From positions 1 through 60,338 of IMG/VR virus record IMGVR_UViG_3300000401_000002: a stretch of 60,338 nt of DNA; one strand, given 5' to 3'. A program made the position numbers and the translations under genes. The stretch is from a virus. Its lineage: Duplodnaviria; Caudoviricetes. How positions within the stretch are numbered: the first letter of the stretch is position 1; each line of letters opens with the position of its first letter. The notes under the pieces are model-generated. The model searched no databases. It was not told the origin of the DNA and saw only the letters and a list, made by a program, of their open reading frames with translations. Positions 32,964 to 60,338 of the stretch are shown here, piece after piece.

Positions 32964-32965
32964 TA

Positions 32966-34875: not shown

Positions 34876-34883
34876 GATAAATA
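34876..34883 (+). promoter_or_regulatory. Late promoter GATAAATA
   Basis: TAAATA core in the gap upstream of ATG 34909. Confidence 0.65.
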
Positions 34884-34908
34884 CTAATGTCGTAACAGGG
34901 GTTTATAA

Positions 34909-36438: not shown

Positions 36439-36441
36439 ATA
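36434..36441 (+). promoter_or_regulatory. T4-type late promoter TATAAATA
   Basis: Exact consensus upstream of the AGGA RBS and ATG 36471. Confidence 0.8.
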
Positions 36442-36470
36442 ATACTAGCACTTTATAGGAAGTAGAATAT

Positions 36471-37376: not shown

Positions 37377-37378
37377 TT

Positions 37379-38476: not shown

Positions 38477-38479
38477 TAC

Positions 38480-38508
38480 TTGACAAAACTATAATCTGAG
38501 TATATACT
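38480..38508 (+). promoter_or_regulatory. Sigma70-type promoter starting the modification island
   Basis: TTGACA (38480-38485), 17-nt spacer, TATACT (38503-38508); GGAG RBS downstream. Confidence 0.82.
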
Positions 38509-38534
38509 AGTAACAATATACTTGGAGATTTCGT

Positions 38535-38882
38535 ATGGATGAAAGATTAGAAAAAGCACTTGAGTTTTCAAACTACATGGTTACACTAAACAACCAACGT
38601 AGAATTGTAAGAGAACAATTTTTAGAAAATTGCGTACATTATTTAAACGGCGGCAAATTTGCAGTTAACAGAGATTTAATTACATTTTGTCAAACACTAG
38701 TAAGTAGAGAACAGACTAGTGCTATTCTTATTGACGATAACGATACTCCTATTGAAGTAGAAGACTTGCAAACATTCTTAGATGATATTCTTGATATTTA
38801 CTTTACTACAACATACGAATACTTTGACAAGTATAACGAAATTAAAAAGAACAGAACAGTCGAAGGTCTAGTTGATCTATGA
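38535..38882 (+). CDS. Hypothetical protein (115 aa)
   Basis: Own promoter and RBS; ATGA overlap with the next gene. Confidence 0.75.
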   Translation: MDERLEKALEFSNYMVTLNNQRRIVREQFLENCVHYLNGGKFAVNRDLITFCQTLVSREQTSAILIDDNDTPIEVEDLQTFLDDILDIYFTTTYEYFDKYNEIKKNRTVEGLVDL

Positions 38883-39739
38883 GCAAAGGCGTACTGCTAT
38901 TTGCACAGAATAATCATACAGTTGATTATGTCAAACAGGCAATGTTTTGTGCAAAAAAAATTAAAAAACATTTAGGGCTTGAAGTAGCAATTGCTACAGA
39001 TAATGCTGATTATCTAAAAACCCAATATCCCTACTACGAACGTTATATAGATCATGTTATTACTCTCGAATGGTATGAATGTAAACAAAAGCGTACATAC
39101 CGTGATGGCACAATGAGTAAACGAGATCTTGAATGGAGAAACTTTGATAGAGGATCTGCGTACGAAATAACTCCATTTGACGAAACTATTGTAATGGACA
39201 CCGACTTTATTATTGGAAATGATTTATTAAACAATGCGTTTGATACAGATCAAGACTTTTTAATTTGGCGTTATATTACTGATGTTAATATGGATAGACC
39301 TGACGAGCACAGATTTAATAAGATTAGTGATCGCAGTGTTGATATGTTTTGGGCTACTGTTTTTTATTTTAAAAAGACACCGTTTATGAAACAGTTCTTT
39401 GAACTTATACGGCACATAAAAGACAACTGGCATTTTTATAGACTAATATATCAAATTCCAAATAAGATATATAGAAATGATTTTGCATTTAGTATTGCTA
39501 TACACATCTACAACGGACACCAACGAACTGCTTGGCCAAAAACATTGCCCGGAAGACTTTGGTTTACAAGTGATGCAGACATTTTAATTAAAATGGAAGA
39601 TGAGCAGTACACTTTCTTGCTAGATAAAAAGCACTGGAAAGGACATTATCATGTAGGTTCTATTAAAGACTGTAATATACACATTATGAACAAGTTTAGT
39701 TTAGACAGAGCAATTAGCGAGGCACTGCAAGATGAATAG
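38879..39739 (+). CDS. Putative GT-A fold glycosyltransferase
   Basis: KGVLLFA...TPFDETIVMDTD (DxD), FWATVFYF, RNDFAFSIA, late His (HIMNK). Confidence 0.7.
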   Translation: MSKGVLLFAQNNHTVDYVKQAMFCAKKIKKHLGLEVAIATDNADYLKTQYPYYERYIDHVITLEWYECKQKRTYRDGTMSKRDLEWRNFDRGSAYEITPFDETIVMDTDFIIGNDLLNNAFDTDQDFLIWRYITDVNMDRPDEHRFNKISDRSVDMFWATVFYFKKTPFMKQFFELIRHIKDNWHFYRLIYQIPNKIYRNDFAFSIAIHIYNGHQRTAWPKTLPGRLWFTSDADILIKMEDEQYTFLLDKKHWKGHYHVGSIKDCNIHIMNKFSLDRAISEALQDE

Positions 39740-40550
39740 AGGCTTTTGCTTATTAGCACAGAATAACGGTAAAACAGATTATATAAGACAAGCATATGCT
39801 CTTGCTAAAAGTCTGCACAAATATAACAACGGTCAAAAAATTAGTTTGATTACAAATGACGATGTGCCTGAAGAATGGCAAGAACCTTTTGATCAAATTA
39901 TTCCTATTCCTTGGACTGACAGTGCAGAAGACAGTGAATGGAAGATAGAAAATCGTTGGAAAGTATATCATGCTAGTCCATACGATGAAACTATTGTACT
40001 AGAAGCAGACATGCTTATACTAAGCGATATTACACACTGGTGGGATGAACTTGCTAAACGTGATTTGTTTTTTGTAAGCAATGTTAGAACGTATCGCGAC
40101 GAGGTAATTACTAATAGATTTTATAGAAAAACATTTGATGCAAATGAATTGCCTAATCTTTATAGCGCATTGCATTACTTTAAAAAAGGTGACACTGCAA
40201 AAGAGTTTTATAACCTATTAGAAATAATTGTTAACAACTGGGAACTATTTTATTCTAAGTATGCTAAAGAAGAATATCAAAAATGGTGTAGTATTGATTT
40301 GTGTGCAGCTATTGCAAGTAAAATTTTAGATAACGAAAAGGATATTACAGATCCAAATAGTTATATTACATTTACACATATGAAACCTAGAATACAAGGA
40401 TGGTATAATATTCCTTCTAAATGGACTAGAGTATTAGGCAAATATTACAGAGATGACGGAACTTTGCTGTTAGGCAACTTTTTACAAACTCGTGTACTAC
40501 ATTACGTAGAAGAAGAATTTTTGTCAGATGAAATTTTGGAGAATCTATAA
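39732..40550 (+). CDS. Putative GT-A fold glycosyltransferase (paralog, ExD motif)
   Basis: RGFCLLA...KIENRWKVYHASPYDETIVLEAD, FTHMKP, LHY. Confidence 0.7.
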   Translation: MNRGFCLLAQNNGKTDYIRQAYALAKSLHKYNNGQKISLITNDDVPEEWQEPFDQIIPIPWTDSAEDSEWKIENRWKVYHASPYDETIVLEADMLILSDITHWWDELAKRDLFFVSNVRTYRDEVITNRFYRKTFDANELPNLYSALHYFKKGDTAKEFYNLLEIIVNNWELFYSKYAKEEYQKWCSIDLCAAIASKILDNEKDITDPNSYITFTHMKPRIQGWYNIPSKWTRVLGKYYRDDGTLLLGNFLQTRVLHYVEEEFLSDEILENL

Positions 40551-41113
40551 TGGATATGAAATTTTATGTAAACTTCAAAGAAGATACTGGCGAAATTTGG
40601 AAGGCTACAAACGAGTGTGACGATTCAACACCTTACATAGAAGTTGATGCTGCAACAGTTTCAGAGTTTACTACAGGTGTAAAAAATATGAATGATTACA
40701 TTGTAGTTCCTTCTGTAACTGAAAAGAAATTTGAAATTAAATTTAAACATAGAGATTTAAATGAATTTGATGTAGATAAAAGTATTCATAGAATACCTAT
40801 AACAGATACTACAGAACATGAAAATGCATTTATGATTATTCAAGAAAACGGATCTTGGACTATTAAACTTTCAGAAGATATGAAAGAAACATTAACTTCA
40901 ACGACTTATTACAAAGATAAAAGTCAGTTAATTTATGTAACAAAAAAGAATGATCCTAATATTTTACTAGACACAATGGTAATAAAGTTGTATAATGTAT
41001 TATACAGTGACGAATATAAATTAGAAAATCAAAGCAGTGCTGTTGCTAACAGAAAGGATATAAGTCTTTTTTGTGGTAAAGTATTTGAACAGTATTTACA
41101 CGTGGTAAAATAA
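40550..41113 (+). CDS. Hypothetical protein (187 aa)
   Basis: Coupled by TAATG overlaps at both ends; no catalytic motif recognised. Confidence 0.75.
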   Translation: MDMKFYVNFKEDTGEIWKATNECDDSTPYIEVDAATVSEFTTGVKNMNDYIVVPSVTEKKFEIKFKHRDLNEFDVDKSIHRIPITDTTEHENAFMIIQENGSWTIKLSEDMKETLTSTTYYKDKSQLIYVTKKNDPNILLDTMVIKLYNVLYSDEYKLENQSSAVANRKDISLFCGKVFEQYLHVVK

Positions 41114-42006
41114 TGAGCAAAATAAAAGTAGTAGATCAAGATATCATTTTTCTTTCTTACGATGAGCCCAACGCTGAAAAGAATTATGCAGACTTATGCC
41201 AAAAAGTGCCTTGGGCTAAACGTGTACACGGAGTACATGGAAGTGATGCAGCACATAAGGCTTGTGCAGATTTGTCAGAGACAGAATACTTTGTGACAGT
41301 AGATGCAGATAATATTATTGATCCTGAGTTTTTAAATCAAGAAGTAGACTTAGACGAGCTAGGTCTAACTCCAGAGCATGTGTTTAGTTGGTGCGGCAAA
41401 GTTCATGTTAACGGACTTATGTACGGCAACGGCGGACTCAAAATGTGGACACGTAAATTTGTACACAGTATGAAAACACATGAGGCAAGCGAGGACGGAG
41501 ATGAACGAGGAAAAGTTGAATTCTGTTTCGACGACAAGTATTACCAGTTTAACGAGAACTACAGTGTTTCTTACACTAATGCGACACCTTGGCAGGCTTG
41601 GCGGGCGGGTTTTCGTGAAGGTGTCAAGATGTCTTTGGATCAAGGGGCCAAAGTAGAAGACTTGCGTACAGTATGGTGGCAAAACTATCAGCGTTTGTTA
41701 ATTTGGAGCCAAGTAGGCGCTGATGTTAAAAATGGTATGTGGAGTATACTAGGAGCACGGCAAGGCTGTTATATGACTAATTGTACAGATTGGGATTACG
41801 CTAATGTACGTGACTTTGAATGGCTAAACAACTTTTGGGAAAGTGATGTAAAAGATTTAAACCCAGAAGAAGAAGCAGAGCGTTTAGGTTTAGAAATACT
41901 AAAAGGTACAGGCGTCGACATTTCTACCAAACCGCTAGACGAAGATCAAAGTAAATTTTTTAAAGCAGTATATCAGAACACGCCAAGGATTATAAGAGCT
42001 AGATGA
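41113..42006 (+). CDS. Putative GT-A-like glycosyl/nucleotidyl transferase
   Basis: DIIFLSYDEP...KRVHGV.G..AH...FVTVDADN (DxD)...YGNGGLK...WRAGFREGVK; paralog of 50174-50851. Confidence 0.62.
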   Translation: MSKIKVVDQDIIFLSYDEPNAEKNYADLCQKVPWAKRVHGVHGSDAAHKACADLSETEYFVTVDADNIIDPEFLNQEVDLDELGLTPEHVFSWCGKVHVNGLMYGNGGLKMWTRKFVHSMKTHEASEDGDERGKVEFCFDDKYYQFNENYSVSYTNATPWQAWRAGFREGVKMSLDQGAKVEDLRTVWWQNYQRLLIWSQVGADVKNGMWSILGARQGCYMTNCTDWDYANVRDFEWLNNFWESDVKDLNPEEEAERLGLEILKGTGVDISTKPLDEDQSKFFKAVYQNTPRIIRAR

Positions 42007-43385
42007 GTAACGAACAACGTATAAAGATACTCGAAGAAAAACGTGAAAAGATTAACAACGTAAGTTGTAGTTTCTGCACGGCTAAGTGGTTGCAAACTAC
42101 ACTTATGCTTCAGAATGGATATAATCACAGTTGCCACCATCCTGCTCCGCACAAGATTCCACTAAAAGAAATTGAAGCAGATCCTGCTGCATTGCACAAC
42201 AGTCAGTATAAAAAAGAACAAAGACTAAAAATGTTAACAGGAGAGCGTCCTAGCGAATGTAGCTACTGCTGGAAGATTGAAGACTTAGGTAAAGACTATT
42301 TTAGCGATCGTCATTATAAAACAGCAGACACATGGGCTTGGGATAGATTTGATGAAATAGCACATAGCGACCCAGGCGAAAATGTATATCCTAGTTATTT
42401 AGAAGTGTCATTTTCAAATGCTTGCAATTTTGCGTGTGCTTATTGTTCTCCTGAAATTAGTAGTAAGTGGATGGAAGATATAAAGCAAAATGGAGAATAT
42501 CCTACTAAGCACGGTTCTCATAATTTAGACTATTTAGAAAAGTCGGGTAAAATGCCTTATAAGAATAGAGAACACAATCCTTACGTTGAAGCATTTTGGA
42601 AGTGGTTCCCAGACGCCCTTCCGCACTTAAAGGTTTTGCGTATTACTGGCGGCGAGCCTACTATGTCAAAAGATACATGGAAGCTATTAGACTATCTAAT
42701 TGAAAATCCACGTAAAGGATTAGACGTTGCAATTAACACTAACGGGTGCGTAGAAGACAAATTAATTAATAAGTTAATTGAAAAAATTAATGCACTTGCA
42801 GAAGTAGGCGTAAAAGTAGATGTTTACACAAGCCTTGAAAGTACTGGGTTACAAGCAGAGTATGCTCGCGACGGCCTTGACTATATAAAATGGTTAGAAA
42901 ATGTTGACAAACTATTAAAAGAAACAAAGTCAACAGTTGCTATAATGACAACAGTTAATATTCTAAGTCTTCCAACTTTTATTGATTTTATAATGACTGT
43001 AATAGACTTTAGAAAAGAATACAATACTAGTTTTGAGTGGAACAGGATTCCAATGAGTATTAACACAATGCATTGGCCTCCGCACTTGCAATTAACTATG
43101 TTAGACAAAGAAGATAGAATGCCTCAAGCAGATACTATTGAAAAGTTTTGTGAAGCATGGCTAAAGTATTACAAGAAAGACAAGTATGCTAGAATATACT
43201 TAGAAGAATTTGATCAAATACAAAGATTGTGTGATTATATGAGAACAACAGAGCCAGCAGTGGAACATAGAGCCGACTTTGTACGATACATACAAGCATA
43301 CGATAAAAGAAGAAATAAAAACTTTGCGGAAACTTTTCCACAATATACACACTTGTTAGAGGAATGGAATGGCGAAAAAACCTGA
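42003..43385 (+). CDS. Radical SAM protein with N-terminal twitch-like Fe-S domain
   Basis: FCTAKW..HSCHH..CSYCW N-domain; CNFACAYC; ITGGEP. Confidence 0.92.
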   Translation: MSNEQRIKILEEKREKINNVSCSFCTAKWLQTTLMLQNGYNHSCHHPAPHKIPLKEIEADPAALHNSQYKKEQRLKMLTGERPSECSYCWKIEDLGKDYFSDRHYKTADTWAWDRFDEIAHSDPGENVYPSYLEVSFSNACNFACAYCSPEISSKWMEDIKQNGEYPTKHGSHNLDYLEKSGKMPYKNREHNPYVEAFWKWFPDALPHLKVLRITGGEPTMSKDTWKLLDYLIENPRKGLDVAINTNGCVEDKLINKLIEKINALAEVGVKVDVYTSLESTGLQAEYARDGLDYIKWLENVDKLLKETKSTVAIMTTVNILSLPTFIDFIMTVIDFRKEYNTSFEWNRIPMSINTMHWPPHLQLTMLDKEDRMPQADTIEKFCEAWLKYYKKDKYARIYLEEFDQIQRLCDYMRTTEPAVEHRADFVRYIQAYDKRRNKNFAETFPQYTHLLEEWNGEKT

Positions 43386-44817
43386 TGAATCTTTGCAGCA
43401 ATACAGAGATAGAGTACTAGACAGCAAAAGTAAAAGTTTTTGTGGAGCCAAGTGGTACAATGCTACTACTTGGTTAGGTAGCGGCACTACTGCAAGTTGT
43501 CATCACCCTCCTGCACATAAAATTCCTATTGTTGAAGTAGAAAGCAACTACACAGCAATTCACAATACAGAGCATAAAAAAGAAATGCGCCGTATGATGC
43601 AAAATGGCGAGCGTCCTCGTGAATGTGAATATTGCTGGAAGATGGAAGACATGGGTAAAGATGCTGTAAGTGACAGGACGTTTAAAAGCATTATTTACAC
43701 TGATGATGAATTACAACAAGCATATGAAGCAGATGCAAACGAAAATACTAACCTCAAAACTTTTGAGATTGCTTTTGATAGGGTGTGTAACCTTGCGTGT
43801 AGTTACTGTAACGCTTCCTTCTCTACCACCTGGGCAAAAGACATCAAGAATAATGGCCCGTATGAGAACTTGGTATCCGACGGTGCCGGAGCTTTCCATC
43901 AAGATGGTTCCTGGGCCCAGCCTTATAAAGACGACGAAGACAATCCTTACATTCAAGCCTTTTGGAAATGGTGGGAAAACGGTCTAAGCGATAGTTTACA
44001 AGAACTACGTGTCACAGGCGGCGAACCTTTAATGAGTGCAAATACTTGGAAATTATTTGATTGGTTTAACGAGCAAGACACGGATATGCGTTTTGCTATT
44101 AACAGTAACCTTATTGCAAAGGATGCTATTATTGATAAACTAATTGAAAAAACGCAAGGTATGAAACACTTTGATCTTTATACTAGTTGCGAAGCAGTAG
44201 GAGAGCAAGCAGAGTACATACGTGACGGCTTAGATTACGATATGTGGCTAAAAAACATTAAACGTCTTCTTACAGAAGGTAACTGTAATGGTGTAAACAT
44301 TATGATGACCATTAACAGTCTTTGTTTGTTTAGTATTACAGAATTTCTTGACGAAGTATACAAGTTAAAAGAACTTACACAAAGTAGAACGCCTACTGTT
44401 AGTTTAAACTTGTTACGTTTTCCTAGTTTTCAAAGTCCATTAGCATTACCTAATCATATTAAAGATTATTGCCATAACAAGTTAAACACTTGGTGGCAAG
44501 AACGTAAAGATGACATTGGCTGGCATGAATTTGAAAAAGCAAGTATTGAACGACTAATTGATTATCTTGTTACTGTAGATGCTCCACACAGACGTACAAG
44601 CAATCCAGTTACACTTTGGCGTGACTTTAAAACTTTTTATGCACAGTACGATGTACGAAGAAATAAAAGTTTAAATGTGTTCCCTAAAATTCTAACAGAT
44701 TGGGTAGAGTCTATTCCAGACACTGATGCAAATATTATGGAACTTGCTGAAAAAGAAGGTTGGATTCTAAAACCTGATAATAAAAACATAGACGAACCAT
44801 TAGGGAAATATGATTAA
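43369..44817 (+). CDS. Radical SAM protein with N-terminal twitch-like Fe-S domain
   Basis: FCGAKW..ASCHH..CEYCW; CNLACSYC; VTGGEP. Confidence 0.92.
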   Translation: MAKKPDESLQQYRDRVLDSKSKSFCGAKWYNATTWLGSGTTASCHHPPAHKIPIVEVESNYTAIHNTEHKKEMRRMMQNGERPRECEYCWKMEDMGKDAVSDRTFKSIIYTDDELQQAYEADANENTNLKTFEIAFDRVCNLACSYCNASFSTTWAKDIKNNGPYENLVSDGAGAFHQDGSWAQPYKDDEDNPYIQAFWKWWENGLSDSLQELRVTGGEPLMSANTWKLFDWFNEQDTDMRFAINSNLIAKDAIIDKLIEKTQGMKHFDLYTSCEAVGEQAEYIRDGLDYDMWLKNIKRLLTEGNCNGVNIMMTINSLCLFSITEFLDEVYKLKELTQSRTPTVSLNLLRFPSFQSPLALPNHIKDYCHNKLNTWWQERKDDIGWHEFEKASIERLIDYLVTVDAPHRRTSNPVTLWRDFKTFYAQYDVRRNKSLNVFPKILTDWVESIPDTDANIMELAEKEGWILKPDNKNIDEPLGKYD

Positions 44818-46156
44818 CTTATATTATGATAAGTTGGCCGAAAAAGATGTACCTATACCAAATGGAATTTCTGAATGGAAATTTACCAAAGATGTACATC
44901 GTATCCCTATAGGTATAGACAGTGATCCTATTGTAGAGTCTTATACTTATTTCTTTAATTGTATAAAAGCACTAGGCTGCAATTTTCAATTGTTTACCGG
45001 AAAAGATACTGCTAAGAATCTTTTCTATCCTATGGAAATAACTAATAGAGCATTTGCTGAGATTAACAACATAGCAGATTTTATTCCAAAGAAAACATTT
45101 AGCAGAATAGCAAAAGGTAAAATGAAATTGCTGTTACTAATGCCTTCAGTGAGTCACGATTATAGATATGTATGGAAGCTAAGAAAAAAACTTGATTTGC
45201 TAGAAGGATCAGGAATGCCAAGAGATCAAGTTTATATTGTACTTGGCGACATCAATAGGACTTATAAAACACTATTAAACACAAAACATGTGTATGGTAT
45301 TGACTGGTGGCAAATTTATACACAAATTGCTCTTATGTCAAGATACAAAATGAAAGATTTTCGCTGGGTATTTAATGATAAGAATAGTCAGCCGCCAGGA
45401 GAAGAAAAGTTAAAAAAAGAGTTATACGAATTAGAAAACTGGAATCCTAAAAGACTTTATTCTGCTTTTACAGGACGAGCTAAATTACATAATACTTGTT
45501 TTATTACGGATCTAAAATATTACAATTTAGATAAAGATGGAAAGTATAGTTACAATATTGAATATGCAGACATCAAACATAATTATAAAGATTTTAGAAT
45601 TACTGATAAGAGCAAAGGCGAAGCATTTATAGAAAAGAAAAAAGAATTAGTAAAAAATGTTACAAGTAAAAATGTTATAATGGATATGACATTAGAAGAA
45701 ATACGTAGAGGAAATCGACTTTATGTTAATAAATCCTTTTACGAAGACAGCCTTGTTAACATTGTAAGCGATTCTTGGATGCCGTTAATGGATGCTAACT
45801 ATTTAGAAGAAATAGATGTACTAGCACCAGGGCCTATGATATGGATGCAAATAGCCAAAGGACACCCCTTTATGGTACTTGGATGTTTAAATACAATTGG
45901 TTATGTTACAAACCAAGGTTACTTTTCTAACAACTTGTTAGTAAACGAAAGTTATGACAGGGTGTCGAGTATTACTAAAACATCTGAAATGATATGTAAC
46001 AATTTAAAAGTTTTAAAAGAATACACAGACGAAGAAATCAAAAACAAAGTAGAAGAAATGAAACCTTTTTTAAAACGTAACAGAGAAAAGTTTTTTAGTA
46101 GACCTAACAAACGTAAATTTATAGTATTATTTGAAGAGATGCAATATGAGCGATGA
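44810..46156 (+). CDS. Hypothetical protein, possibly a degenerate GT10-like (GT-B) glycosyltransferase
   Basis: C-terminal YEDSLVNIVSDS...IAKGHPFMVLG...GY.....NESYD resembles the IVTET..TEK..KPI...PF..G..DESYD pattern but lacks TEK. Confidence 0.4.
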   Translation: MINLYYDKLAEKDVPIPNGISEWKFTKDVHRIPIGIDSDPIVESYTYFFNCIKALGCNFQLFTGKDTAKNLFYPMEITNRAFAEINNIADFIPKKTFSRIAKGKMKLLLLMPSVSHDYRYVWKLRKKLDLLEGSGMPRDQVYIVLGDINRTYKTLLNTKHVYGIDWWQIYTQIALMSRYKMKDFRWVFNDKNSQPPGEEKLKKELYELENWNPKRLYSAFTGRAKLHNTCFITDLKYYNLDKDGKYSYNIEYADIKHNYKDFRITDKSKGEAFIEKKKELVKNVTSKNVIMDMTLEEIRRGNRLYVNKSFYEDSLVNIVSDSWMPLMDANYLEEIDVLAPGPMIWMQIAKGHPFMVLGCLNTIGYVTNQGYFSNNLLVNESYDRVSSITKTSEMICNNLKVLKEYTDEEIKNKVEEMKPFLKRNREKFFSRPNKRKFIVLFEEMQYER

Positions 46157-50142: not shown

Positions 50143-50167
50143 CAAAATAGGTTAAAATCTGTATAAT
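50139..50167 (+). promoter_or_regulatory. Perfect sigma70 consensus promoter, probably leaderless
   Basis: TTGACA (50139-50144), 17-nt spacer, TATAAT (50162-50167); ATG begins 7 nt after the -10 element. Confidence 0.85.
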
Positions 50168-50173
50168 AATAAA

Positions 50174-52416: not shown

Positions 52417-53488
52417 ATTTAGCGAATTAGAAAATATACATTTAGAAATTACAAATCGTTGCCAAGCAAGTTGTCCTATGTGTAGTAGGAATTATCACGG
52501 TGGCTTAGATAACCCACTTATTAAAAACAAAGACTGGACACTTGATGACTTTAAACAAATTTTAAATACAAAAACTTTAGAACAATTAAAAGGATTTTAT
52601 TTTTGTGGCAATTTTGGTGACCCTATTATTAACGATGAGTTAATAGAAATGGTTGCATATTCTGCTAGTGTAAATCCTCAGTTAAACATTAGAATACACA
52701 CAAACGGTAGTGCTAGAAGCACACAATGGTGGACTGATTTAGCAAACGCATTACCAGAAACACATAATGTAATTTTTGCAATTGACGGCTTAGAAGATAC
52801 ACATAGTTTGTATCGTATAGGAACAAGCTACAATAAAATATTACAAAATGCAAAAGCATTTATTGATGCAGGCGGAACTGCTGAATGGTGCTTTATAAAA
52901 TTTAAACATAACGAACATCAAGTAGAAGAAGCTCGTAAAAAAGCAGAAGAACTTGGATTTAGTTTATTTGTTGAAAAGAATAGTAGCAGATTTATTGGAG
53001 AGCCAAAGTTTCCTGTATATGATAAAAATGGAGATACTACGCATTACCTAGAACCTCCTAGTAGTAGCGAGTTGCCTTACATTACAGAAGAAATGATTGC
53101 TAATTATAAAGACGTTTTGCGAGATGCAGAAATAGATTGCTATGTAAAGCATACTAAAGAAATTTACATCGACGCATATAAAAAAGTTTTTCCTTGTTGC
53201 TTTCTAGCAAGCACACCTTACAATTATGCTAAAACAAACGATATTACTGCTCCTGTAAGAAACGACATGAATTTACAATATATTGACCTAATAGAAAGTT
53301 TAGGTAACAACTATGCTTTAGAAGTTGACATAGAAGATATTATAAACTCTAATCAATGGCAAACCGTTTGGAAAGACTATTGGGGCAAAAACAAACTAAT
53401 TACTTGTGCAAGAACTTGCGGCAAAGTAAAAGAATTACCAAAGCCTAAAGATCAATTTATAAATGTAATAGGACTAAACAATGAGTAA
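52409..53488 (+). CDS. Radical SAM protein with C-terminal twitch/SPASM-like domain
   Basis: CQASCPMC; GNFGDP; C-terminal IDC..VFPCC..CARTC. Start moved to ATG 52409. Confidence 0.9.
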   Translation: MFKFSELENIHLEITNRCQASCPMCSRNYHGGLDNPLIKNKDWTLDDFKQILNTKTLEQLKGFYFCGNFGDPIINDELIEMVAYSASVNPQLNIRIHTNGSARSTQWWTDLANALPETHNVIFAIDGLEDTHSLYRIGTSYNKILQNAKAFIDAGGTAEWCFIKFKHNEHQVEEARKKAEELGFSLFVEKNSSRFIGEPKFPVYDKNGDTTHYLEPPSSSELPYITEEMIANYKDVLRDAEIDCYVKHTKEIYIDAYKKVFPCCFLASTPYNYAKTNDITAPVRNDMNLQYIDLIESLGNNYALEVDIEDIINSNQWQTVWKDYWGKNKLITCARTCGKVKELPKPKDQFINVIGLNNE

Positions 53489-54896
53489 ATGGTGGTACAA
53501 TGACGCAGATAGTCAACTAGGAAAGTATCAGCGAGAATTAGAAAGTGTAGCAGGTACGCCTACTTTTTGTGTGCTACCTTGGATACACTTTGCTACAAGA
53601 CCTAATGGTGACATGCGATTATGTTGCAGTGCAAATGCTAGTGGAGCAGGCAATGATCACGAAGTTGGTCTTGTTAAAATGGAAAACGGCAAGCCTGCAA
53701 ACTTTGGCCGCGAAACGCCTATGGAAGCATGGAATAACGACTATATGAAAAGTGTACGTACAACTATGCTACGTGGAGAAATTCCTGCAAGTTGTAAAAA
53801 GTGCTTTGAAGAAGAAAAGGTAGGCGTAGTTAGCAAACGTATTTGGGAAAGTGGCACTTGGCATCGAGACGAAGAAGGTGTAGATATTCCGGAACTAATA
53901 AAACAAACTCAAGAAGACGGCACAGTACCGGAAGAGTTAGTGTACTTAGATTTACGTTTAGGACATACGTGTAACATTAAATGTGTTATGTGTAGCCCTC
54001 ATGATAGTTCTAAGTGGGTAAAAGACTGGCAACAACTTATACCTGTTCTACAAGACGATAACGTCAAGCAACAAATGCAGTGGGACAAGAGCGAGTTTAA
54101 TAATAAGTGGCATGAAAAAGATACATTTTGGGAAGAAATGTATAGACAGATACCTAACCTAAAGCAAGTATACTTTGCCGGCGGCGAGCCTTTAATGATT
54201 AAAGAACACAAAATGTTTATCGAAGAAATACTGCGTCAAGGTTATCAAGACAAAATATTATTACGCTATAATTCTAATGGACTTCTTGTAGACGAAGATT
54301 TAATTGAAATGTGGAGCAAGTTTAAAAAAGTTAAATTTGCAATTAGTATGGATGCAAGTCACGAACGTGACGAGTATATACGTTATCCTACCGACTTTGA
54401 AACTGTAGAACGTACACTGCACATGCTTGACAACACTCCTGATAATATACAAACTAGTTTAGCAACAGCAATACAAATTTTTAATGTAAAGCATTTGCCC
54501 GACTTTATGAAATGGAAAGTTGAAAGCGGATTTAAAAAGTTAAATAGTGGCAATGTTCCGGGCGGAGTACAAATGGGCGGCGGACTAGTTAACATGCATT
54601 TGCTTTATATTCCTACCTTCCTAAGTATACAAATACTTCCTAAAGAAGATAAACAGGAAGTAGAAGAACGCTTTATGGACTTTAAAGATTGGCTATGGAA
54701 GAATTATAGACAAGATGATGATTATTGGAAAGTTAACCCATACGGCTGGAAACGCTGGGAAGCAGTACTAAAACATATGAACGCACAAGATAACAGTCAT
54801 CTATTACCAGGCTTTAAAGAATATACAAATAAGTTAGATGCTATTAGGGGTGTAAATGCTAAAACAGTATTTCCGGAGTTGGCGCATTTATTATGA
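53481..54896 (+). CDS. Radical SAM protein with N-terminal twitch domain
   Basis: FCVLPWIH..RLCC..CKKC; CNIKCVMC; FAGGEP. Confidence 0.92.
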   Translation: MSKWWYNDADSQLGKYQRELESVAGTPTFCVLPWIHFATRPNGDMRLCCSANASGAGNDHEVGLVKMENGKPANFGRETPMEAWNNDYMKSVRTTMLRGEIPASCKKCFEEEKVGVVSKRIWESGTWHRDEEGVDIPELIKQTQEDGTVPEELVYLDLRLGHTCNIKCVMCSPHDSSKWVKDWQQLIPVLQDDNVKQQMQWDKSEFNNKWHEKDTFWEEMYRQIPNLKQVYFAGGEPLMIKEHKMFIEEILRQGYQDKILLRYNSNGLLVDEDLIEMWSKFKKVKFAISMDASHERDEYIRYPTDFETVERTLHMLDNTPDNIQTSLATAIQIFNVKHLPDFMKWKVESGFKKLNSGNVPGGVQMGGGLVNMHLLYIPTFLSIQILPKEDKQEVEERFMDFKDWLWKNYRQDDDYWKVNPYGWKRWEAVLKHMNAQDNSHLLPGFKEYTNKLDAIRGVNAKTVFPELAHLL

Positions 54897-55849
54897 TTAC
54901 ACGAATTGAAAATAATCAAGATCCTGATCTAGTGCGTATAGAATATATGCCAGGAAATACTTGTAACCATAAGTGTTATTATTGTTTTCCTGGAAGCAAC
55001 GAAGGTAATATCGCTTGGCCAGACGTAGACCTTGTAAAAACAAATCTATCACACCTACTAAAGTGTTATGAACAAAACGGCAAGCCTAAAAGCAATTTGT
55101 ATATTGTAGGAGGTGAGCCTACATTGTGGAAGGGATTAGAAGAACTTTGTCAGTATCTAAAAGACAATCACGATATTATAATAGAAATTAGTACAAACGG
55201 CACACGCAAACTAAACTGGTGGAAAGAGAACGCAAAGAATTTTGACCATGTAGAAGTTAGTGTACATAGAGAATTTGCTAACCTTGATCATTTGGTTAGT
55301 GTATGCGATACACTTTACGAGGAAGGCGTATTTGTTAATGCAGATGTTTTAATTGATCCAGAAGCATACGATGAGTGTTTAGAAAATGTAGAATACCTAA
55401 AAAAGTTTGCTGCACACAAATGGCCAATAATAGCAAAAATTGTTCATTTTGACGGAACACATAGATACACTGAAGAACAATTAAAATATTTTGAAGACAC
55501 TATTAAACAGTATCCTACAAAAGAATGGTTTGAAGCAACTACTAGAAAACCATTGCGCGAAGTAAAGATATATTCTGATGAAGATGTTATTACTATTAAT
55601 AACGATAATTATTTGATTGCAAATAAATTAAATAATTTTAAAGGCTGGAAATGTAACTTAGGTGTAGACTTTATTAAAATATTTCCGGACGGACGAATAA
55701 CAGGAAACTGTCAACAAGCATTATTTGGAAACTTATACACGCCAAATTTTATTGATTCGTATAAGCCTATTATTAAACCGTTAACATGTAATAGAGATCT
55801 ATGTGTTTGTAGCGAAGAAACAGTAATAGAAAAATATGCCCGACTTTAA
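54893..55849 (+). CDS. Radical SAM protein with C-terminal Cys domain
   Basis: CNHKCYYC; VGGEPT; NNFKGWKCNLG..GNC..CNRDLCVC. Confidence 0.9.
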   Translation: MITRIENNQDPDLVRIEYMPGNTCNHKCYYCFPGSNEGNIAWPDVDLVKTNLSHLLKCYEQNGKPKSNLYIVGGEPTLWKGLEELCQYLKDNHDIIIEISTNGTRKLNWWKENAKNFDHVEVSVHREFANLDHLVSVCDTLYEEGVFVNADVLIDPEAYDECLENVEYLKKFAAHKWPIIAKIVHFDGTHRYTEEQLKYFEDTIKQYPTKEWFEATTRKPLREVKIYSDEDVITINNDNYLIANKLNNFKGWKCNLGVDFIKIFPDGRITGNCQQALFGNLYTPNFIDSYKPIIKPLTCNRDLCVCSEETVIEKYARL

Positions 55850-56888
55850 TACACTTGAGCCCGTAGATCATAATTATTTTAGCATAGAGTGGGAGACTAC
55901 TCTAAAGTGCAATCTTGACTGTTCATATTGTGGCGACGGTCACGATAATAGTTTGCCTCATCCTAGTTTAGCTGATAGTTTAGATACTGTAGACTTTATT
56001 TTTAAATATACTGACTTACAATTAAAACAAAAACCTAAACATCTACAACACGCTAATTTAAATATATTTGGCGGCGAAAGTTTTTATCATCCTAAAATAT
56101 TAGAAATACTGCGCTATGCACATCATAGAAAACAAGACTACGACTGGAGTATTAGTATTAGTACGATTACTAATGCAGTAGTAAAGGAAAAATTATGGCA
56201 TAGAATTATTCCTTTTGTAGATTATTTTACAGTGAGTTTTCATGCAGAAAGCACTTTGGAACAGCAAGAACTAGTAAGACAAAATATATTATACCTAAAG
56301 AAAATAGATAAGCCATTACATGTAAGTGTAATGATGCATCCTAAACATTGGCAGACTTGTGTAGACATGGTCGAATGGTGTAAAGATAACGACATTAAAT
56401 GTAATGCAAGACAGATAGATCACGATGTTTTAGATTTTCGATTTAATTATAATAGCGAGCAAAGCATATATCTTACAGGGTCTGCGCCAAGTACAATAGA
56501 AAAAATAGGAGGACTTATTGCTAAAGGTATTGACTTGTCTTCAAGCGGTCGTGCCTGTTGTGGCAATATGTCAATGTGTACAAATACATGCGATTCTACA
56601 AAATATATAAAAGGTAATAATTTTAAAGGTTGGCATTGTAGTGTAGATAGATTCTTTTTATACATTAAACAAAACACAGGCGAAGTGTTTACTAATAAAG
56701 ATTGCAAAATGAACTATGAAGGGAAAGTTGCTCCTATAGGATATTTGTCAAACACACAAGCAATTTTAAATAATATAAATTCGTCCACAATAATTTGTAA
56801 AAAGAAAAGTTGTTGGTGTGGACTGTGTGCTCCTAAAGCAAAAACAGAAGAAGACTTTAAAAGGATTATGATCAAATATGTTGAATAA
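55836..56888 (+). CDS. Radical SAM protein with extended Cys-rich C-terminus
   Basis: CNLDCSYC; FGGES; GRACCG, FKGWHC, CKKKSCWCGLC. Confidence 0.9.
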   Translation: MPDFNTLEPVDHNYFSIEWETTLKCNLDCSYCGDGHDNSLPHPSLADSLDTVDFIFKYTDLQLKQKPKHLQHANLNIFGGESFYHPKILEILRYAHHRKQDYDWSISISTITNAVVKEKLWHRIIPFVDYFTVSFHAESTLEQQELVRQNILYLKKIDKPLHVSVMMHPKHWQTCVDMVEWCKDNDIKCNARQIDHDVLDFRFNYNSEQSIYLTGSAPSTIEKIGGLIAKGIDLSSSGRACCGNMSMCTNTCDSTKYIKGNNFKGWHCSVDRFFLYIKQNTGEVFTNKDCKMNYEGKVAPIGYLSNTQAILNNINSSTIICKKKSCWCGLCAPKAKTEEDFKRIMIKYVE

Positions 56889-58098
56889 ACTTATTAAACA
56901 TAATCTAGGTCCTAGTATGTGTACTGCAAAATGGACTAACAGTACAATACATCTTGGGATTGGACGTACACACAGTTGCCACCATCCGCATCCTCATCAA
57001 ATTCCGTTGATAGAAATTGCAAGTGATCCTGCTGCATTACATAATACACAACACAAAAAACAAGTAAGAAAACAAATGTTAGAAGGCACGTGTCCTAGTG
57101 AGTGTAATTATTGTTGGAATATAGAAAACGCAGGAGGCACAGGCGATCGTGTGCTAATGACACGTAAGGACGGAATACGTGAATACTTTAAAATTAAAAA
57201 TACACAGTGGGATGATAATTATGATCCTACCTACTTAGAAGTAAGTTTTTCTAATGTATGTAATTTTGCTTGTGCGTATTGCGGACCAGAATACAGCAGT
57301 AAATGGCATAGCGAAATAAAGCAGTCTCGCTATCCAAATAACTATAACAGTATACATGTAGAACAAATACCTGACAAAGAACAAAATCCTTATATTGATG
57401 CTTTTTGGAAATACTTTCCAAACATTTATAAAAATTTAAAAGTTCTACGCATTACTGGCGGCGAGCCATTTATGAGTAGACATACTGAAACTTTATTAAA
57501 TTTTATAAAGCATAATCCTAATAAAAAACTTACACTGATCATTAACAGTAATTTAGGCATACCAAATACATTATTCAATAAGTATGTTGAGATGCTAAGA
57601 AGCATAAAGCAATATGTAAAAAAAATAGAAATTGCTACTAGTGGAGAAGGATATCAAGAGCGCGGCGAATATGTTAGGGACGGATTAAATTACAATCAAT
57701 GGAGAAGTAACTGCGATATTATAGCAAAACATTTTTATTTAAACATAATGTGCGCATATAATATTTTTAGTGTTACTAGCTTTGAACAATTTTTACACGA
57801 TATTAAAACAATAAAAAATGTAAAAGTTAGTATAAGTGCTGTTAGAGATCCTGCATTTATGAGTGCATCTGTAATGCCTTTGGGTTGGATGAATTATATG
57901 CACGAGCAGTTAGAATATATCAAACGTAATTTTCCTAGAGAAACACAAGAGCGATTTAAACAAGTAATGGCACATGCTAAAATAAAAACTAACAAAACTA
58001 ACGAACTTGTGTCATTTATAAAAGAATACGACAAACGCAGAAACAAAAACTTTGCAGAAGTTTTTCCTGAATATAAATTTATAATTCAACAGTTGTAA
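56878..58098 (+). CDS. Radical SAM protein with N-terminal twitch-like domain (close paralog of 42003-43385)
   Basis: MCTAKW..HSCHH..CNYCW; CNFACAYC; ITGGEP; YDKRRNKNFAEVFP. Confidence 0.92.
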   Translation: MLNKLIKHNLGPSMCTAKWTNSTIHLGIGRTHSCHHPHPHQIPLIEIASDPAALHNTQHKKQVRKQMLEGTCPSECNYCWNIENAGGTGDRVLMTRKDGIREYFKIKNTQWDDNYDPTYLEVSFSNVCNFACAYCGPEYSSKWHSEIKQSRYPNNYNSIHVEQIPDKEQNPYIDAFWKYFPNIYKNLKVLRITGGEPFMSRHTETLLNFIKHNPNKKLTLIINSNLGIPNTLFNKYVEMLRSIKQYVKKIEIATSGEGYQERGEYVRDGLNYNQWRSNCDIIAKHFYLNIMCAYNIFSVTSFEQFLHDIKTIKNVKVSISAVRDPAFMSASVMPLGWMNYMHEQLEYIKRNFPRETQERFKQVMAHAKIKTNKTNELVSFIKEYDKRRNKNFAEVFPEYKFIIQQL

Positions 58099-59161
58099 TA
58101 CGATTCCAAATGTTTTTAAAATTGTCTAGCTCTTTAGCTTTTGGAATACACATACCGCACCCACATCTTGCATTAGGACAAATAATAGGTTTGCTAACAT
58201 TTATTTCGTTGAGCATTTTTTGCGTATTGTCTAGATTTCCAATTGGTCCAACTGTTCCGTCTTTACGTGCTTGACATGTTTGATGATGATATACGTTGCC
58301 GGTTTCTTGATCAATGTGTAAAAAGAACCAATCAATCATGCAATGCCATCCTTGGAATTTGTTTTCAACAAGTTTTACTGGTTGCCAATCATTGTTAACT
58401 AACCCTTCTAAACATCTTCCACCGCAGCACTTACGTCCCATTTCAGTTCCTTCTGTTGGCCGCTGTGCTTTATCTTTAATTCCTACTTCGTTCCAAAACC
58501 ATTCTTGTTGTTCTTCGGTATATTCGTGACTGGTTCTTCGCATAACGCCGTCACTGTCTTTGAACCAACCTTTAAATGCAACAGTGCCGTCGCCTATTGG
58601 AACAGGATTATATTTTACATTATTTTCTTTTAAAAATGCACACACTTCTTTGGCTTCTTCAAAGTAATCACAGTGTAGCATAACATTTACTTGTAGCCAT
58701 ATATCGTGTTCTTTAACTTTTAGAATATTGTGCAGCACACGATCTTTTAATTTTTTATCTGCTTCGGCATGCCAGCTAATAGTAATACCGTCAATATATG
58801 TAGAAATTTTATCTATGTCTTTTTCAGGCCAGGTTCCGTTTGTAGTTAATCCTACATTGTATCCTTCGTGTTCTTTAATGTATTTTACAATTTCCCAAAA
58901 TTTAGGATTAACAGTAGGTTCGCCACCGGTAAAGTCAATATTTACATGTTGCGGATCTTTTTTAAATGAATTATACTTACTGGTCCAGTCTTTAATAAAA
59001 TTAAAAGTATCCTTCATAGACTCTAAACTAGCATGAGGACTAGTATTATTATGTCTGCTGGCTTCGCAATATGTGCAGTCGTAATTACAGCGTCTGCCAA
59101 GATCCCAGGTAACCATCATTGGTTCTGGATTAGTTAAATTTATAGCAGTTGTTTTAATCAT
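58079..59161 (-). CDS. Radical SAM protein with extended Cys-rich C-terminus
   Basis: CNYDCTYC; FTGGEPT; GRKCCG, FQGWHC, CPNARCGCGMC. Start moved to ATG 59161 (track used 59242). Confidence 0.9.
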   Translation of the reverse strand: MIKTTAINLTNPEPMMVTWDLGRRCNYDCTYCEASRHNNTSPHASLESMKDTFNFIKDWTSKYNSFKKDPQHVNIDFTGGEPTVNPKFWEIVKYIKEHEGYNVGLTTNGTWPEKDIDKISTYIDGITISWHAEADKKLKDRVLHNILKVKEHDIWLQVNVMLHCDYFEEAKEVCAFLKENNVKYNPVPIGDGTVAFKGWFKDSDGVMRRTSHEYTEEQQEWFWNEVGIKDKAQRPTEGTEMGRKCCGGRCLEGLVNNDWQPVKLVENKFQGWHCMIDWFFLHIDQETGNVYHHQTCQARKDGTVGPIGNLDNTQKMLNEINVSKPIICPNARCGCGMCIPKAKELDNFKNIWNRITTVEL

Positions 59162-60056
59162 TTTTAACCTTTGTAAGAGGGATATCAGCAGCACATGTAC
59201 ACCATTTACGAGTACATATAATAGGAGCATCTGGCATTTCAAAATCGCCTTTGTATATATTTCCTAAGCTCCCACCTACTCTGCATGTAGCTCGATGTAC
59301 ATCACCGTCCCAGTTGATCATTAGACTCTCAATACCTGCATTACACGACCAGCCTTCAAACTGGTTCTTATGTTCTTTTATAATATCATTAGCATGTATT
59401 AGTTCTTCGTCGTCTACTACACAATTAGGTTTAGCAGTAGACTTTTGACCTAAGAGCCATTCTAAATCTTTTGGCTGATATCGCATGTCGTCAAACCAAT
59501 CATGTTTTTCTGTCCAGCGTATGCGTCTAACAACATAGGGTATGTCATGTCCTTCAAACAATGCTGCACACTGTTTGACTCTATCCATGTGTTCGTGATG
59601 TGCCATTAGGTTAACTTGAAACGGAATACCTCTTTCCATTTCGTTTAGTTGTGCCCAATACAGTACATTGTTAGCACATCGTTGCCAGTTGTCGTCATCT
59701 TCTACGTGCAAACTGAATACATAGTGGTTTACAGGAAGTCTAGCATAAAGTTTGTGTGGTAATGTGCCATTGGTTGTAATGTTAATCCAGTCTAGTCTTT
59801 GTACAGCATGTTCTACTATCTCTATAATATGAGGGTGAACACATGGTTCTCCGCCAGTAAAACTCAATCGAACAGGTCTGTCTAGTTCTGCTAGTGCATC
59901 AATTGTGTCTAGCATTACTTTTACTTCTGTATGCGGGCTAAAGTTGTCGTGTATTTCTGCAGGACAGTAGGTACAGTCTAGATTACAGCGTTTTCCTATG
60001 TTCCATTCGACATGAATACTATCTTTGTGATCCCAGCGACTTTCAACTTTATACAT
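59154..60056 (-). CDS. Radical SAM protein with C-terminal Cys domain
   Basis: CNLDCTYC; FTGGEP; NQFEGWSCNAG..ATC..CTRKWCTCAAD. Confidence 0.9.
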   Translation of the reverse strand: MYKVESRWDHKDSIHVEWNIGKRCNLDCTYCPAEIHDNFSPHTEVKVMLDTIDALAELDRPVRLSFTGGEPCVHPHIIEIVEHAVQRLDWINITTNGTLPHKLYARLPVNHYVFSLHVEDDDNWQRCANNVLYWAQLNEMERGIPFQVNLMAHHEHMDRVKQCAALFEGHDIPYVVRRIRWTEKHDWFDDMRYQPKDLEWLLGQKSTAKPNCVVDDEELIHANDIIKEHKNQFEGWSCNAGIESLMINWDGDVHRATCRVGGSLGNIYKGDFEMPDAPIICTRKWCTCAADIPLTKVKND

Positions 60057-60338
60057 ATGGAGTAAACTCCGGGTTTACTGAAAGAAAATCTTGTCCTCTA
60101 GTTTTGTCTAATCTGCGATTAAATTCAACACAGTCTGCCCAGTGTGTATCATACATACATTTTGCTTCTAAAAAGTTAATGTTATCTTGTATTTGTTGCA
60201 ATGTAACAGTCTTTAACAAATCGTGCTCTTGCACTAAAGGATACTCTAATACATCTGCCTTCATCATTTCAAGTTTGCGAACTACACGCTGTTTTAGTTT
60301 AGGTGGCAACACTTGCGCACTCAGTGCCATAGGATAGT
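60049..60338 (-). CDS. C-terminal fragment of another N-twitch-type radical SAM protein (5' end outside the window)
   Basis: Frame open to the window edge; ends FNRRLDKTRGQDFLSVNPEF, matching the D-x2-R-x3-F-x3-PE tail of the N-twitch paralogs. Confidence 0.7.
   Translation of the reverse strand, partial: YPMALSAQVLPPKLKQRVVRKLEMMKADVLEYPLVQEHDLLKTVTLQQIQDNINFLEAKCMYDTHWADCVEFNRRLDKTRGQDFLSVNPEFTPYV

Follow-up and report, generated by a model that had tools for sequence, protein, structure and literature searches.

An island of 13 radical SAM genes beside the tail-fibre genes of a presumed marine T4-like jumbo phage and its possible role in glycan editing

Phage gene islands packed with enzymes of the radical S-adenosylmethionine (rSAM) type have been in print since 2010 without an assigned reaction. 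The T4-like Campylobacter phages CP220 and CPt10 possess 11-12 rSAM genes, a content termed 'highly unusual', and an interchangeable module of five rSAMs, to which the available part of the genome paper assigns no function (Timms et al. 2010, PMC2853527). The authors' suggestion was that the genes help metabolism when oxygen is low, and the same part of the paper reports no link to glycosyltransferases. Pelagimyophages and cyanomyophages, with genomes of 132-164 kb, feature a host recognition cluster (HRC), which in pelagimyophages contains fibre genes, GT8-rich glycosyltransferases and rSAM cassettes; in the accessible portion of the source, the HRC is read as modifying the host O-chain, which was proposed without tests (Zaragoza-Solas et al. 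2020, PMC7029224). Here, we describe an island of 13 rSAM genes at positions 38480-60338 of a 60,338-bp DNA stretch (hereafter, the window), which is the entire linear IMG/VR virus record IMGVR_UViG_3300000401_000002, rated ~12% complete. A first-pass annotation of this island had stated that phages usually carry few rSAM genes; CP220/CPt10 and the pelagimyophage cassettes are published exceptions to that rule (PMC2853527, PMC7029224). Its further statement, that it knew of no characterised pathway of this type, agrees with our literature searches, which turned up neither such a pathway nor a paper assigning a reaction to such an rSAM island or to the rSAM family NF033640 described below.

Between position 38535 and the window edge we counted 22 complete open reading frames (ORFs), 12 of them rSAM, and one ORF cut by that edge. 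The plus-strand genes leave just two intergenic gaps, 38477-38534 (58 nt) and 50143-50173 (31 nt), and the remaining neighbours overlap or abut. The tight coupling of the genes, their position next to the tail-fibre genes and the continuation of the island past the window edge had all been pointed out in the first-pass annotation and were borne out, as was its count of 12 complete rSAM ORFs plus a partial one. The best-supported reading of the island is a sugar-related one, which rests on gene context and not on chemistry: we lean towards the view that the island makes a short glycan, whose sugars it subsequently modifies through radical chemistry.

The rSAM genes were scored with Pfam model PF04055 (gathering cut-off 29.5 bits) and NCBIfam model NF033640 (cut-off 170 bits). 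The features of the island are given below, where 'core' marks genes conserved among 80 related loci and RsoM2USA ORFs are those of the phage record MG752970.

38480-38508, plus strand: sigma-70-type promoter TTGACA-17-TATACT at the island start (11/12 consensus positions)
38535-38882, plus strand: first island gene, a 115-aa protein without a family match, 33% identical to RsoM2USA_354, in 21/22 loci
38879-39739, plus strand: GT8-like or nucleotide-diphospho-sugar-transferase-like protein, paralogue of 39732, 37% identical to RsoM2USA_353
39732-40550, plus strand: GT8-like or nucleotide-diphospho-sugar-transferase-like protein (Atlas neighbours; phrog_1903 match), 39% identical to RsoM2USA_352
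40550-41113, plus strand: 187-aa protein without a family match, position kept in 21/22 loci
41113-42006, plus strand: GT-A-fold glycosyltransferase-like protein, paralogue of 50174 (32% identical), 44% identical to RsoM2USA_350
42003-43385, plus strand: rSAM, NF033640 (328.8 bits), 45% identical to RsoM2USA_349
43369-44817, plus strand: rSAM, NF033640 (305.4 bits), 58% identical to RsoM2USA_202
44810-46156, plus strand: 448-aa protein with 58 homologues, none with a Pfam domain; in a cassette with 46131, 47404 and 48212
46131-47411, plus strand: rSAM, NF033640 (370.8 bits), Pfam SPASM at residues 17-83, N-terminal to the rSAM core
47404-48231, plus strand: candidate SGNH-like hydrolase or acyl-handling protein, a lead (invariant residues in 27 sequences)
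48212-49177, plus strand: 321-aa protein without a family match, 81-87% identical in 6 loci
49165-50142, plus strand: rSAM with C-terminal SPASM/twitch domain (Pfam rSAM 47.6 bits, SPASM 43 bits)
50139-50167, plus strand: promoter with a perfect match to the sigma-70 consensus, TTGACA-17-TATAAT, ahead of the conserved core (12/12 site)
50174-50851, plus strand: GT-A-fold glycosyltransferase-like protein, core (AF2 model, Foldseek)
50802-51824, plus strand: rSAM of family B, core (Pfam 40.1 bits), at ≥60% identity in 59/80 loci
51814-52416, plus strand: class-I-methyltransferase-like protein, a lead, core (Atlas neighbours), 35% identical to RsoM2USA_347
52397-53488, plus strand: rSAM of a singleton type, core (Pfam 30.1 bits), 35% identical to an rSAM of Nocardia pNF1
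53481-54896, plus strand: rSAM, NF033640 (393.2 bits), the most conserved island gene
54893-55849, plus strand: rSAM of family B (Pfam 49.9 bits; paralogue matrix)
55836-56888, plus strand: rSAM of family B (Pfam 29.8 bits; paralogue matrix)
56878-58098, plus strand: rSAM, NF033640 (287.9 bits)
58079-59242, minus strand: rSAM of family B (Pfam 57.3 bits); its TTG start as listed probably lies too far upstream
59154-60056, minus strand: rSAM of family B, core (Pfam 52.8 bits)
60049-60338, minus strand: the C-terminal end (95 residues) of a sixth rSAM with an N-terminal twitch, truncated at the window edge (NF033640 positions 312-397)
30870-38476, plus strand: five tail-fibre-like genes (30870, 32966, 34909, 36471, 37379), context outside the island

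The PF04055 cut-off was passed by 11 of the 12 complete rSAM ORFs (29.8-57.3 bits); the twelfth, 43369-44817, stayed below it at 27.5 bits and reached 305 bits on NF033640. The CX3CX2C motif is present in all 12, as the first-pass annotation had it. The partial minus-strand ORF, 60049-60336, corresponds to the C-terminal end of the NF033640 model (positions 312-397, 38.9 bits), and the complete orthologues found in related contigs measure 421-441 aa and have CX3CX2C. The 13 rSAMs sort into four ancient paralogue groups, and all four are proposed to have an additional domain with an Fe-S cluster. Family A, the NF033640 type with an N-terminal twitch domain, has six members (42003, 43369, 46131, 53481, 56878 and the partial edge ORF), the five complete ones scoring 288-393 bits on NF033640; the other seven rSAMs score 23-46 bits and are non-members. 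Four cysteines N-terminal to the CX3CX2C core (C17, C36, C80 and C83 in the numbering of 46131) are invariant in 13 family A sequences, and Pfam SPASM matches were obtained at residues 17-83 and 30-108 of family A N-terminal regions. Family B comprises five rSAMs, 50802, 54893, 55836, 58079 and 59154, the last two on the minus strand, with a common C-terminal Cys-rich domain and no common curated family; 876 representative clusters of this family were found at E ≤ 1e-10 (phmmer, query 59154). The two remaining groups are 49165, whose closest solved chain is BtrN (E 1.1e-11), and the singleton 52397. Sequence or profile searches of the PDB gave nothing significant for 53481 and 52397, and Pfam revealed no domain besides rSAM, SPASM and Fer4_12 in the rSAM proteins.

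Of 296 candidate IMG/VR stretches, 295 contain a relative of 53481, the best 80 being 84-96% identical. Counts out of 80 refer to 80 related loci, many of which are short. Five long related contigs contain 10-11 clustered rSAM matches each, and the 13 related loci with full flanks carry 8-13 rSAMs (median 11). The conserved core consists of 50174, 50802, 51814, 52397, 53481, a gene of the 54893 type, 59154 and the rSAM at the edge; when identity and coverage must both be ≥60%, seven of these genes occur in 43, 59, 64, 39, 80, 47 and 42 of the 80 loci. The segments 38535-49165 and 55836-58079 vary between loci by whole cassettes, e.g., 44810 + 46131 + 47404 + 48212. Related phages differ by cassettes in which rSAM genes are gained or lost together with partner genes, and the core stays fixed. 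The island seems to be under purifying selection, with a dN/dS ratio of 0.03-0.15 in 14 of 14 gene pairs compared with the closest relative, L009, the dS being partly saturated. Its rSAMs are old, individually maintained genes and not a recent amplification; the identity among island paralogues is just 21-39%, individual orthologues in related contigs are ~60-96% identical and dN/dS is low.

The junction between the fibre genes and the island was checked in the 22 contigs around 39732 orthologues. The order of the fibre genes 30870-37379, then 38535, 38879, 39732, 40550, 41113 and the rSAMs is kept in 21 of them, and the 22nd is a contig without upstream sequence. This argues against the host-derived misassembly that the first-pass annotation had allowed for, and misassembly or host contamination appears to be excluded.

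Several related loci show features of their own. In L009, an N-twitch rSAM and an SGNH-like protein are fused in one 699-aa ORF (2652-4751, plus strand), equivalent to 46131-48231 of the window. The window and four other loci keep the 46131- and 47404-type genes separate and overlapping; the fusion, found in one of five related loci only, is either a rare event or an assembly frameshift and was set aside. In L118, a 9.7-kb IMG/VR contig, genes similar to 38879, 39732, 41113 and 50174 are consecutive, with no rSAM detected between them. Past the last rSAM, many relatives (L087, L019, L064 and others) contain runs of ORFs of 180-230 aa (clusters c7, c8 and c10) with no Pfam match, and in some loci a GDP-mannose-dehydratase-like gene is also located downstream of the last rSAM. 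Scanning genome contigs with one protein as the query brought up nothing but a 3.5-kb phage-like contig that had been assigned to the bin of an archaeal metagenome-assembled genome.

Four of the ten non-rSAM proteins fall into two families, 41113/50174 and 38879/39732, with no detectable relationship to each other. The 41113/50174 family is a large environmental one (5132 proteins, E ≤ 1e-3), and a Pfam domain is lacking from all of the 120 proteins listed. Its V56-D57-x-D59 motif is invariant in 31 sequences and follows strand 52-57 of the AF2 model of 50174 (pLDDT 90.2). A Foldseek search of this model against the PDB produced 47 matches at E ≤ 1e-3, and all those listed are GT-A-fold glycosyl- or nucleotidyltransferases, including WrtF, RmlT, ppGalNAcT, SunS and A64R (E from 5e-5). 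PDB sequence or profile searches for the family gave nothing significant. The model supports a GT-A fold for 50174, and 41113 is included by paralogy. For 39732, the Atlas neighbours carry nucleotide-diphospho-sugar transferase names and belong to PF03407/PF01501 (Nucleotid_trans/GT8) clusters at 0.95-0.96. Comparison of the 38879/39732 profile with a Pfam-positive GT8 protein of Vibrio phage K566 gave an hhalign probability of 69% (E 4.4e-5) over the N-terminal 102 columns, with the D-x-D aligned with that of the GT8 protein; in the family alignment (A8), D93 is invariant inside this D-x-D-type site. We treat the GT8-like nature of 38879/39732 as a lead. The four GT-A-type ORFs of the first-pass annotation are therefore upheld unequally, by fold evidence for 41113/50174 and by weaker profile evidence for 38879/39732, and no curated glycosyltransferase family (Pfam, NCBIfam, functional PHROG) is matched by any of the four.

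The other non-rSAM proteins provided leads at best. In the 47404 family, the residues G88-C89-S90, N117, G119, G122 and D249-x-x-H252 are invariant (27 sequences, blocks assigned by eye), Pfam gave no match and GDSL/esterase chains of the PDB were matched at E 0.75-1.2 only; an SGNH-like hydrolase or acyl-handling protein is a lead only. The 51814 family has invariant G58-G59-W-x-G62 and D82-I-D84, and its Atlas structural neighbours are automatically named methyltransferase, with no family over the bar; Pfam is negative and the PDB profile search was not significant, and the class I methyltransferase-like assignment is likewise no more than a lead. The 44810 protein, initially described as GT10-like, has no match in Pfam, NCBIfam, PHROGs or the PDB profile search, and 38535, 40550 and 48212 have no family match in Pfam, PHROGs or NCBIfam. 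Pfam at E ≤ 5 and NCBIfam yielded only chance-level matches for the ten non-rSAM ORFs, and a match of one of them to a staphylococcal toxin OB-fold (E 0.1) was rejected as noise.

Sugar-related genes were found around the rSAMs in relatives. When 94 proteins, each representing a non-rSAM cluster of the 80 loci, were scanned, Pfam detected GDP_Man_Dehyd/Epimerase in four, UDPG_MGDP_dh in two, 2OG-Fe(II) oxygenases in four, and PfkB, MannoseP_isomer, Asp_Arg_Hydrox and Mtd_N in one each. Between the 50802-type rSAM and the methyltransferase-like gene, six loci contain a short-chain dehydrogenase/reductase (SDR) epimerase/dehydratase and nine a gene of the UDP-glucose/GDP-mannose-dehydrogenase family; a further dehydrogenase gene is present inside the island in ten loci. 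Vibrio phages K566/K567 possess five NF033640-like genes (two above the cut-off, three just below) interleaved with two Pfam-positive GT8 genes. A polysaccharide locus on an Azospirillum brasilense plasmid includes three rSAMs, of which one resembles 49165 and another has the N-twitch architecture but, at 117.7 bits, stays under the cut-off; their neighbours are a nucleotide-sugar dehydrogenase, epimerases, FkbM methyltransferases, a carbamoyltransferase and a glycosyltransferase.

Some surroundings of related rSAMs are of other kinds. In K566 (L090), a gene at 5281-5730 annotated as lipid A acylation protein PagP (annotation only) lies three genes from the rSAM/GT8 cluster. On a Photobacterium damselae plasmid (L095, 5192-13461), a family-B-like rSAM is accompanied by a GT2 protein, a 95-aa ORF, a SelO-family protein, HlyD and a peptidase-domain ABC exporter, which looks like an undescribed peptide-modification cluster. 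On Nocardia farcinica plasmid pNF1 (L094, 7210-11048), a family-B rSAM and a 52397-type rSAM (35% identity) are enclosed by two methyltransferase genes. This module, which mirrors the phage core 50802-51814-52397, adjoins genes for enzymes of a sugar-phosphate type, namely a phosphoketolase, a HAD hydrolase and an enolase-superfamily protein, and its content suggests a small molecule as the product.

Both plus-strand gaps hold the best sigma-70-type sites of their regions. The site at 38480-38508 is the best in 30000-49999, and its hexamers are kept, with a varying spacer, in 12 of 12 distinct related upstream sequences; that at 50139-50167 is the only 12/12 site in 45000-60338. The 80 loci contain 48 near-consensus sigma-70 sites, compared to 12.3 ± 3.2 in shuffles, and 22 of the 48 lie no more than 60 nt upstream of a 41113/50174-family gene (71 such genes; ~0.1 expected). 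The total numbers of sigma-70-like and terminator-like sites in the window are at the chance level, and the weight lies on the position and conservation of the two best sites only. T4 early promoters resemble sigma-70 sites, and T4 late promoters read TATAAATA. Comparison of orthologous upstream regions revealed a T4-late-like motif, GATAAATAC, before the 34909 orthologue in all ten loci examined, and GTATAAATA before 36471 in five of ten, the coordinate used for the other five not sitting at the start codon. The exact word TATAAATA is not enriched, with three matches against 9.3 expected. The island has sigma-70-type promoters and the fibre genes have late-type motifs; therefore, adjacency does not mean co-regulation. 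The island may be regarded as a separate, probably early, transcription unit.

In the mechanism we propose, host RNA polymerase would read the island from its own sigma-70-type promoters, probably from early infection. The four GT-A-type transferases (two GT8-like, two GT2-like) would use nucleotide-activated sugars, and the 13 rSAMs would remove hydrogen from C-H bonds of sugars, either in nucleotide-sugars or in the glycan under construction, leading to oxidation, epimerisation, dehydration or C-C/C-methyl products. The methyltransferase-like and SGNH-like proteins would add or remove small groups. If sugars are indeed handled, we give roughly half of the weight to the phage's own fibre or baseplate proteins as the target, somewhat less to an envelope glycan of the infected cell and the small remainder to other acceptors. 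A bolder version, a combinatorial radical glycan editor in which at least four uncharacterised rSAM families each perform a different C-H functionalisation, the glycan is placed on the receptor-binding fibres or the infected cell and cassette gain and loss diversify it among close phage relatives, seems doubtful to us.

The dedicated glycan-tailoring pathway proposed in the first-pass annotation draws support from the sugar-gene context in relatives, the GT-A-like proteins and the likeness of 49165 to BtrN, and a number of observations weigh against it. None of the ten non-rSAM ORFs reaches a curated Pfam, NCBIfam or PHROG functional family, and the TM-scores of the 50174 model are modest (TMq 0.28-0.43). 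Neither a recognisable nucleotide-sugar enzyme in the window nor a recognised flippase, polymerase or other membrane component for glycan export among the island proteins was found. The N-twitch profile matches only generic rSAM cores in the PDB (GDGT-MAS, MoaA, viperin, BlsE). No GT8-like protein could be recognised next to the second NF033640 gene of RsoM2USA (hhalign probabilities of 2.7% and 0.2%), and the closest plasmid relative of family B (25% identity) belongs to the RiPP-like (ribosomally synthesised and post-translationally modified peptide) export cluster of Photobacterium. The promoter difference between the island and the fibre genes weakens the link to the virion.

GT-A fold matches that include protein and peptide glycosyltransferases, with SunS at the top TMq (0.43) and ppGalNAcT, also speak for an alternative in which the rSAMs act on fibres or on a peptide (epimers, cross-links, C-methyl groups, RiPP-like products), the GT-A proteins are protein glycosyltransferases and the attached sugars are not rSAM substrates. 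The Photobacterium cluster with its GT2, 95-aa ORF, HlyD and ABC exporter, the Asp/Arg-hydroxylase and 2OG-oxygenase domains, often protein-acting, in related islands and in phage Mosig, and the conserved fibre-gene neighbours all agree with it. However, the two gaps leave no space for a precursor-peptide gene in the window, no peptide-recognition (RRE) domain was seen in the rSAMs by Pfam, their scores on RiPP maturase models are far below the cut-offs, and the fibre proteins have no collagen-like or other repeat hinting at a modification site. Nucleotide-sugar enzymes located between core rSAM genes in relatives count against it as well, and we consider protein or peptide modification unlikely. 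A soluble sugar-derived small molecule (a modified nucleotide, an aminocyclitol-like or a sugar-phosphate-derived compound) instead of a decorated polymer is quite unlikely, too. The Nocardia rSAM pair between two methyltransferases would fit such a product, as would the BtrN likeness of 49165, given the role of BtrN in aminoglycoside synthesis, the early-type expression signals and the absence of any recognised transport or membrane family among the island proteins. Four glycosyltransferase-like proteins, in turn, favour transfer to an acceptor, no exporter or resistance gene was recognised, and the conserved place next to the fibre genes would be left unexplained.

Hypermodification of phage DNA, with bases decorated by edited sugars against host nucleases, would be in keeping with the sigma-70-type promoters, as T4 DNA glucosyltransferases are expressed early, and with the same lack of a recognised membrane family in all the enzymes. 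Nevertheless, no DNA-binding or base-flipping domain was detected in the island proteins, bacterial relatives reside in polysaccharide or small-molecule loci, and the thymidylate-synthase/hydroxymethylase family (PF00303) occurs in none of five related contigs, which are 26-57% complete and, as fragments, constitute weak evidence; we regard this option as very unlikely. Finally, the island might consist of known cofactor-pathway genes or of host DNA joined by misassembly. Weak sub-threshold likeness to MoaA, NrdG, QueE and NirJ, and the 'molybdenum cofactor' labels in Mosig, point that way. Yet the MoaA model reached at most 46.1 bits (cut-off 284), PqqE 19.8 (cut-off 381) and NirJ-type models 30.9 (cut-offs 515-650), the scores on QueE and NrdG models were far below the equivalog cut-offs and cofactor-pathway partner genes are absent from the island. 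Thus, the orthology to MoaA, PqqE or NirJ that the first-pass annotation had named as fatal to its proposal is contradicted by scores of 15-46 bits against cut-offs of 284-650. The even GC-content (0.32-0.38 in the island, 0.32-0.40 in the rest of the window), the junction kept in related contigs and the 295 IMG/VR relatives contradict foreign origin, and this explanation, to which we attach hardly any probability, is refuted as far as sequence can tell. The building and radical editing of a sugar chain remains our preferred reading.

The left part of the window contains T4-type genes for SbcCD-like gp46/47, a gp55-type late sigma factor and the baseplate hub and wedge, followed by a single 5153-aa virion protein and then by fibre and collar proteins. 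With its 1179 aa, the wedge protein shows 34-38% identity to its counterparts in the jumbo phages Phosso, SCTP-2 and Atu_ph07 and in the Rak2/GAP32 group, and the closest cultured relatives by this protein are jumbo phages of 284-490 kb. Related contigs of 155-201 kb are rated 42-57% complete (42-44% for those of 155-160 kb, CheckV). Megablast with the island as query found no match among 50,697 phage records, and no cultured phage is alike at the DNA level. We regard the source as an uncultured marine T4-like jumbo phage. The region 30870-36438 matches tail-fibre and tail-collar PHROGs, and 36471 and 37379 are similar to RsoM2USA_355. No collagen-like G-X-Y repeats, and no repeat of any other kind marking a modification site, were found in the five fibre proteins; the 204-aa ORF upstream of them (30252) also has no G-X-Y repeats. 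The 5153-aa ORF (14769-30230, plus strand), located after the baseplate wedge gene, matches phrog_10938, 'virion structural protein' (858 bits), and occupies the position of RsoM2USA ORF361 (2541 aa) and of VrlC in pelagimyophages. At the far left, a 149-aa ORF (1305-1754) in the minus-strand region 740-1972, which the SbcC-like gene adjoins, matches homing-endonuclease PHROGs and is bordered by non-coding stretches of unusual length, 565 and 218 nt. Rfam and tRNA scans of the window found nothing.

Such islands are abundant in the sea, the core rSAM 53481 alone having 295 IMG/VR relatives. If the sugar reading holds, they would provide several new radical reactions on carbohydrates, and the phage-made glycan may affect host recognition or superinfection; a combinatorial editor, if real, would extend the arms race of phage and host to the level of sugars and would yield new radical chemistry on sugars. 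The analysis adds to the published picture the conserved host-type promoters of the island, by which it is not simply part of a late fibre operon, and a conserved core separable from swappable cassettes. Simpler versions in cultured phages, namely a one-rSAM mini-module, the Vibrio phage rSAM/GT8 cluster and a pelagiphage island, are experimental entry points.

The mini-module belongs to RsoM2USA, a phage of a soil plant pathogen. Its ORFs 354-347 are collinear with 38535, 38879, 39732, a small ORF, 41113, an N-twitch rSAM, 50174 and 51814 (identities 33-45%) and directly follow a fibre-like gene. It is the only one of the 50,697 phage records with either transferase-like family. The module contains one rSAM only, a second being located elsewhere in the genome, and ORFs 346-355 are all annotated as hypothetical; the available text of the genome paper does not discuss the module genes (the word 'radical' occurs 0 times). 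The pelagiphage island is that of Mosig EXVC030M, in whose record three rSAMs, a DegT-type aminotransferase, a carbamoyltransferase, methyltransferases and an epimerase lie between VrlC and the fibres. Its annotation calls such rSAM genes 'molybdenum cofactor biosynthesis enzyme', and the genome announcement makes no mention of an rSAM island.

Among characterised enzymes, the closest solved relative of 49165 is BtrN (PDB 4M7T/4M7S), a twitch-type rSAM enzyme that serves as a dehydrogenase in butirosin synthesis. Most of the matched part is the rSAM core (query residues 14-117), the N-twitch profile matches the BtrN twitch domain at E 0.027 only and no aminoglycoside pathway genes are present in the island. 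BtrN has one auxiliary Fe-S cluster in its twitch domain and a carbohydrate-like substrate. Virus-encoded cytoplasmic GT-A enzymes are a trait shared with the A64R-type capsid glycans of chloroviruses and the virion glycans of mycobacteriophages, where such enzymes decorate virion proteins, and A64R is among the fold matches of 50174. We know of no rSAM enzymes in either virion glycosylation system.

Weak homologues of family B and of the 52397-type rSAM (21-24% identity) exist in CP220/CPt10-type phages, and no NF033640-type match was found in Campylobacter phages at E ≤ 1e-3. NF033640 (N_Twi_rSAM) itself is a catalogued family, of which six diverged paralogues are gathered here in one island. 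Like the HRC, as described in the available part of its source (PMC7029224), the island is a hypervariable block of a T4-like marine myophage adjoining tail-fibre genes and a giant baseplate protein; the window matches the HRC arrangement, with the 5153-aa ORF and the fibre genes upstream and a gene content that varies around a core. Unlike the HRC phages, the phage of the window belongs to a jumbo lineage, and its block is dominated by rSAMs (13 in 22 kb). Because multi-rSAM islands without an assigned function or reaction are already in print (CP220; HRC), the island is a jumbo-phage, rSAM-dominated variant of a described type.

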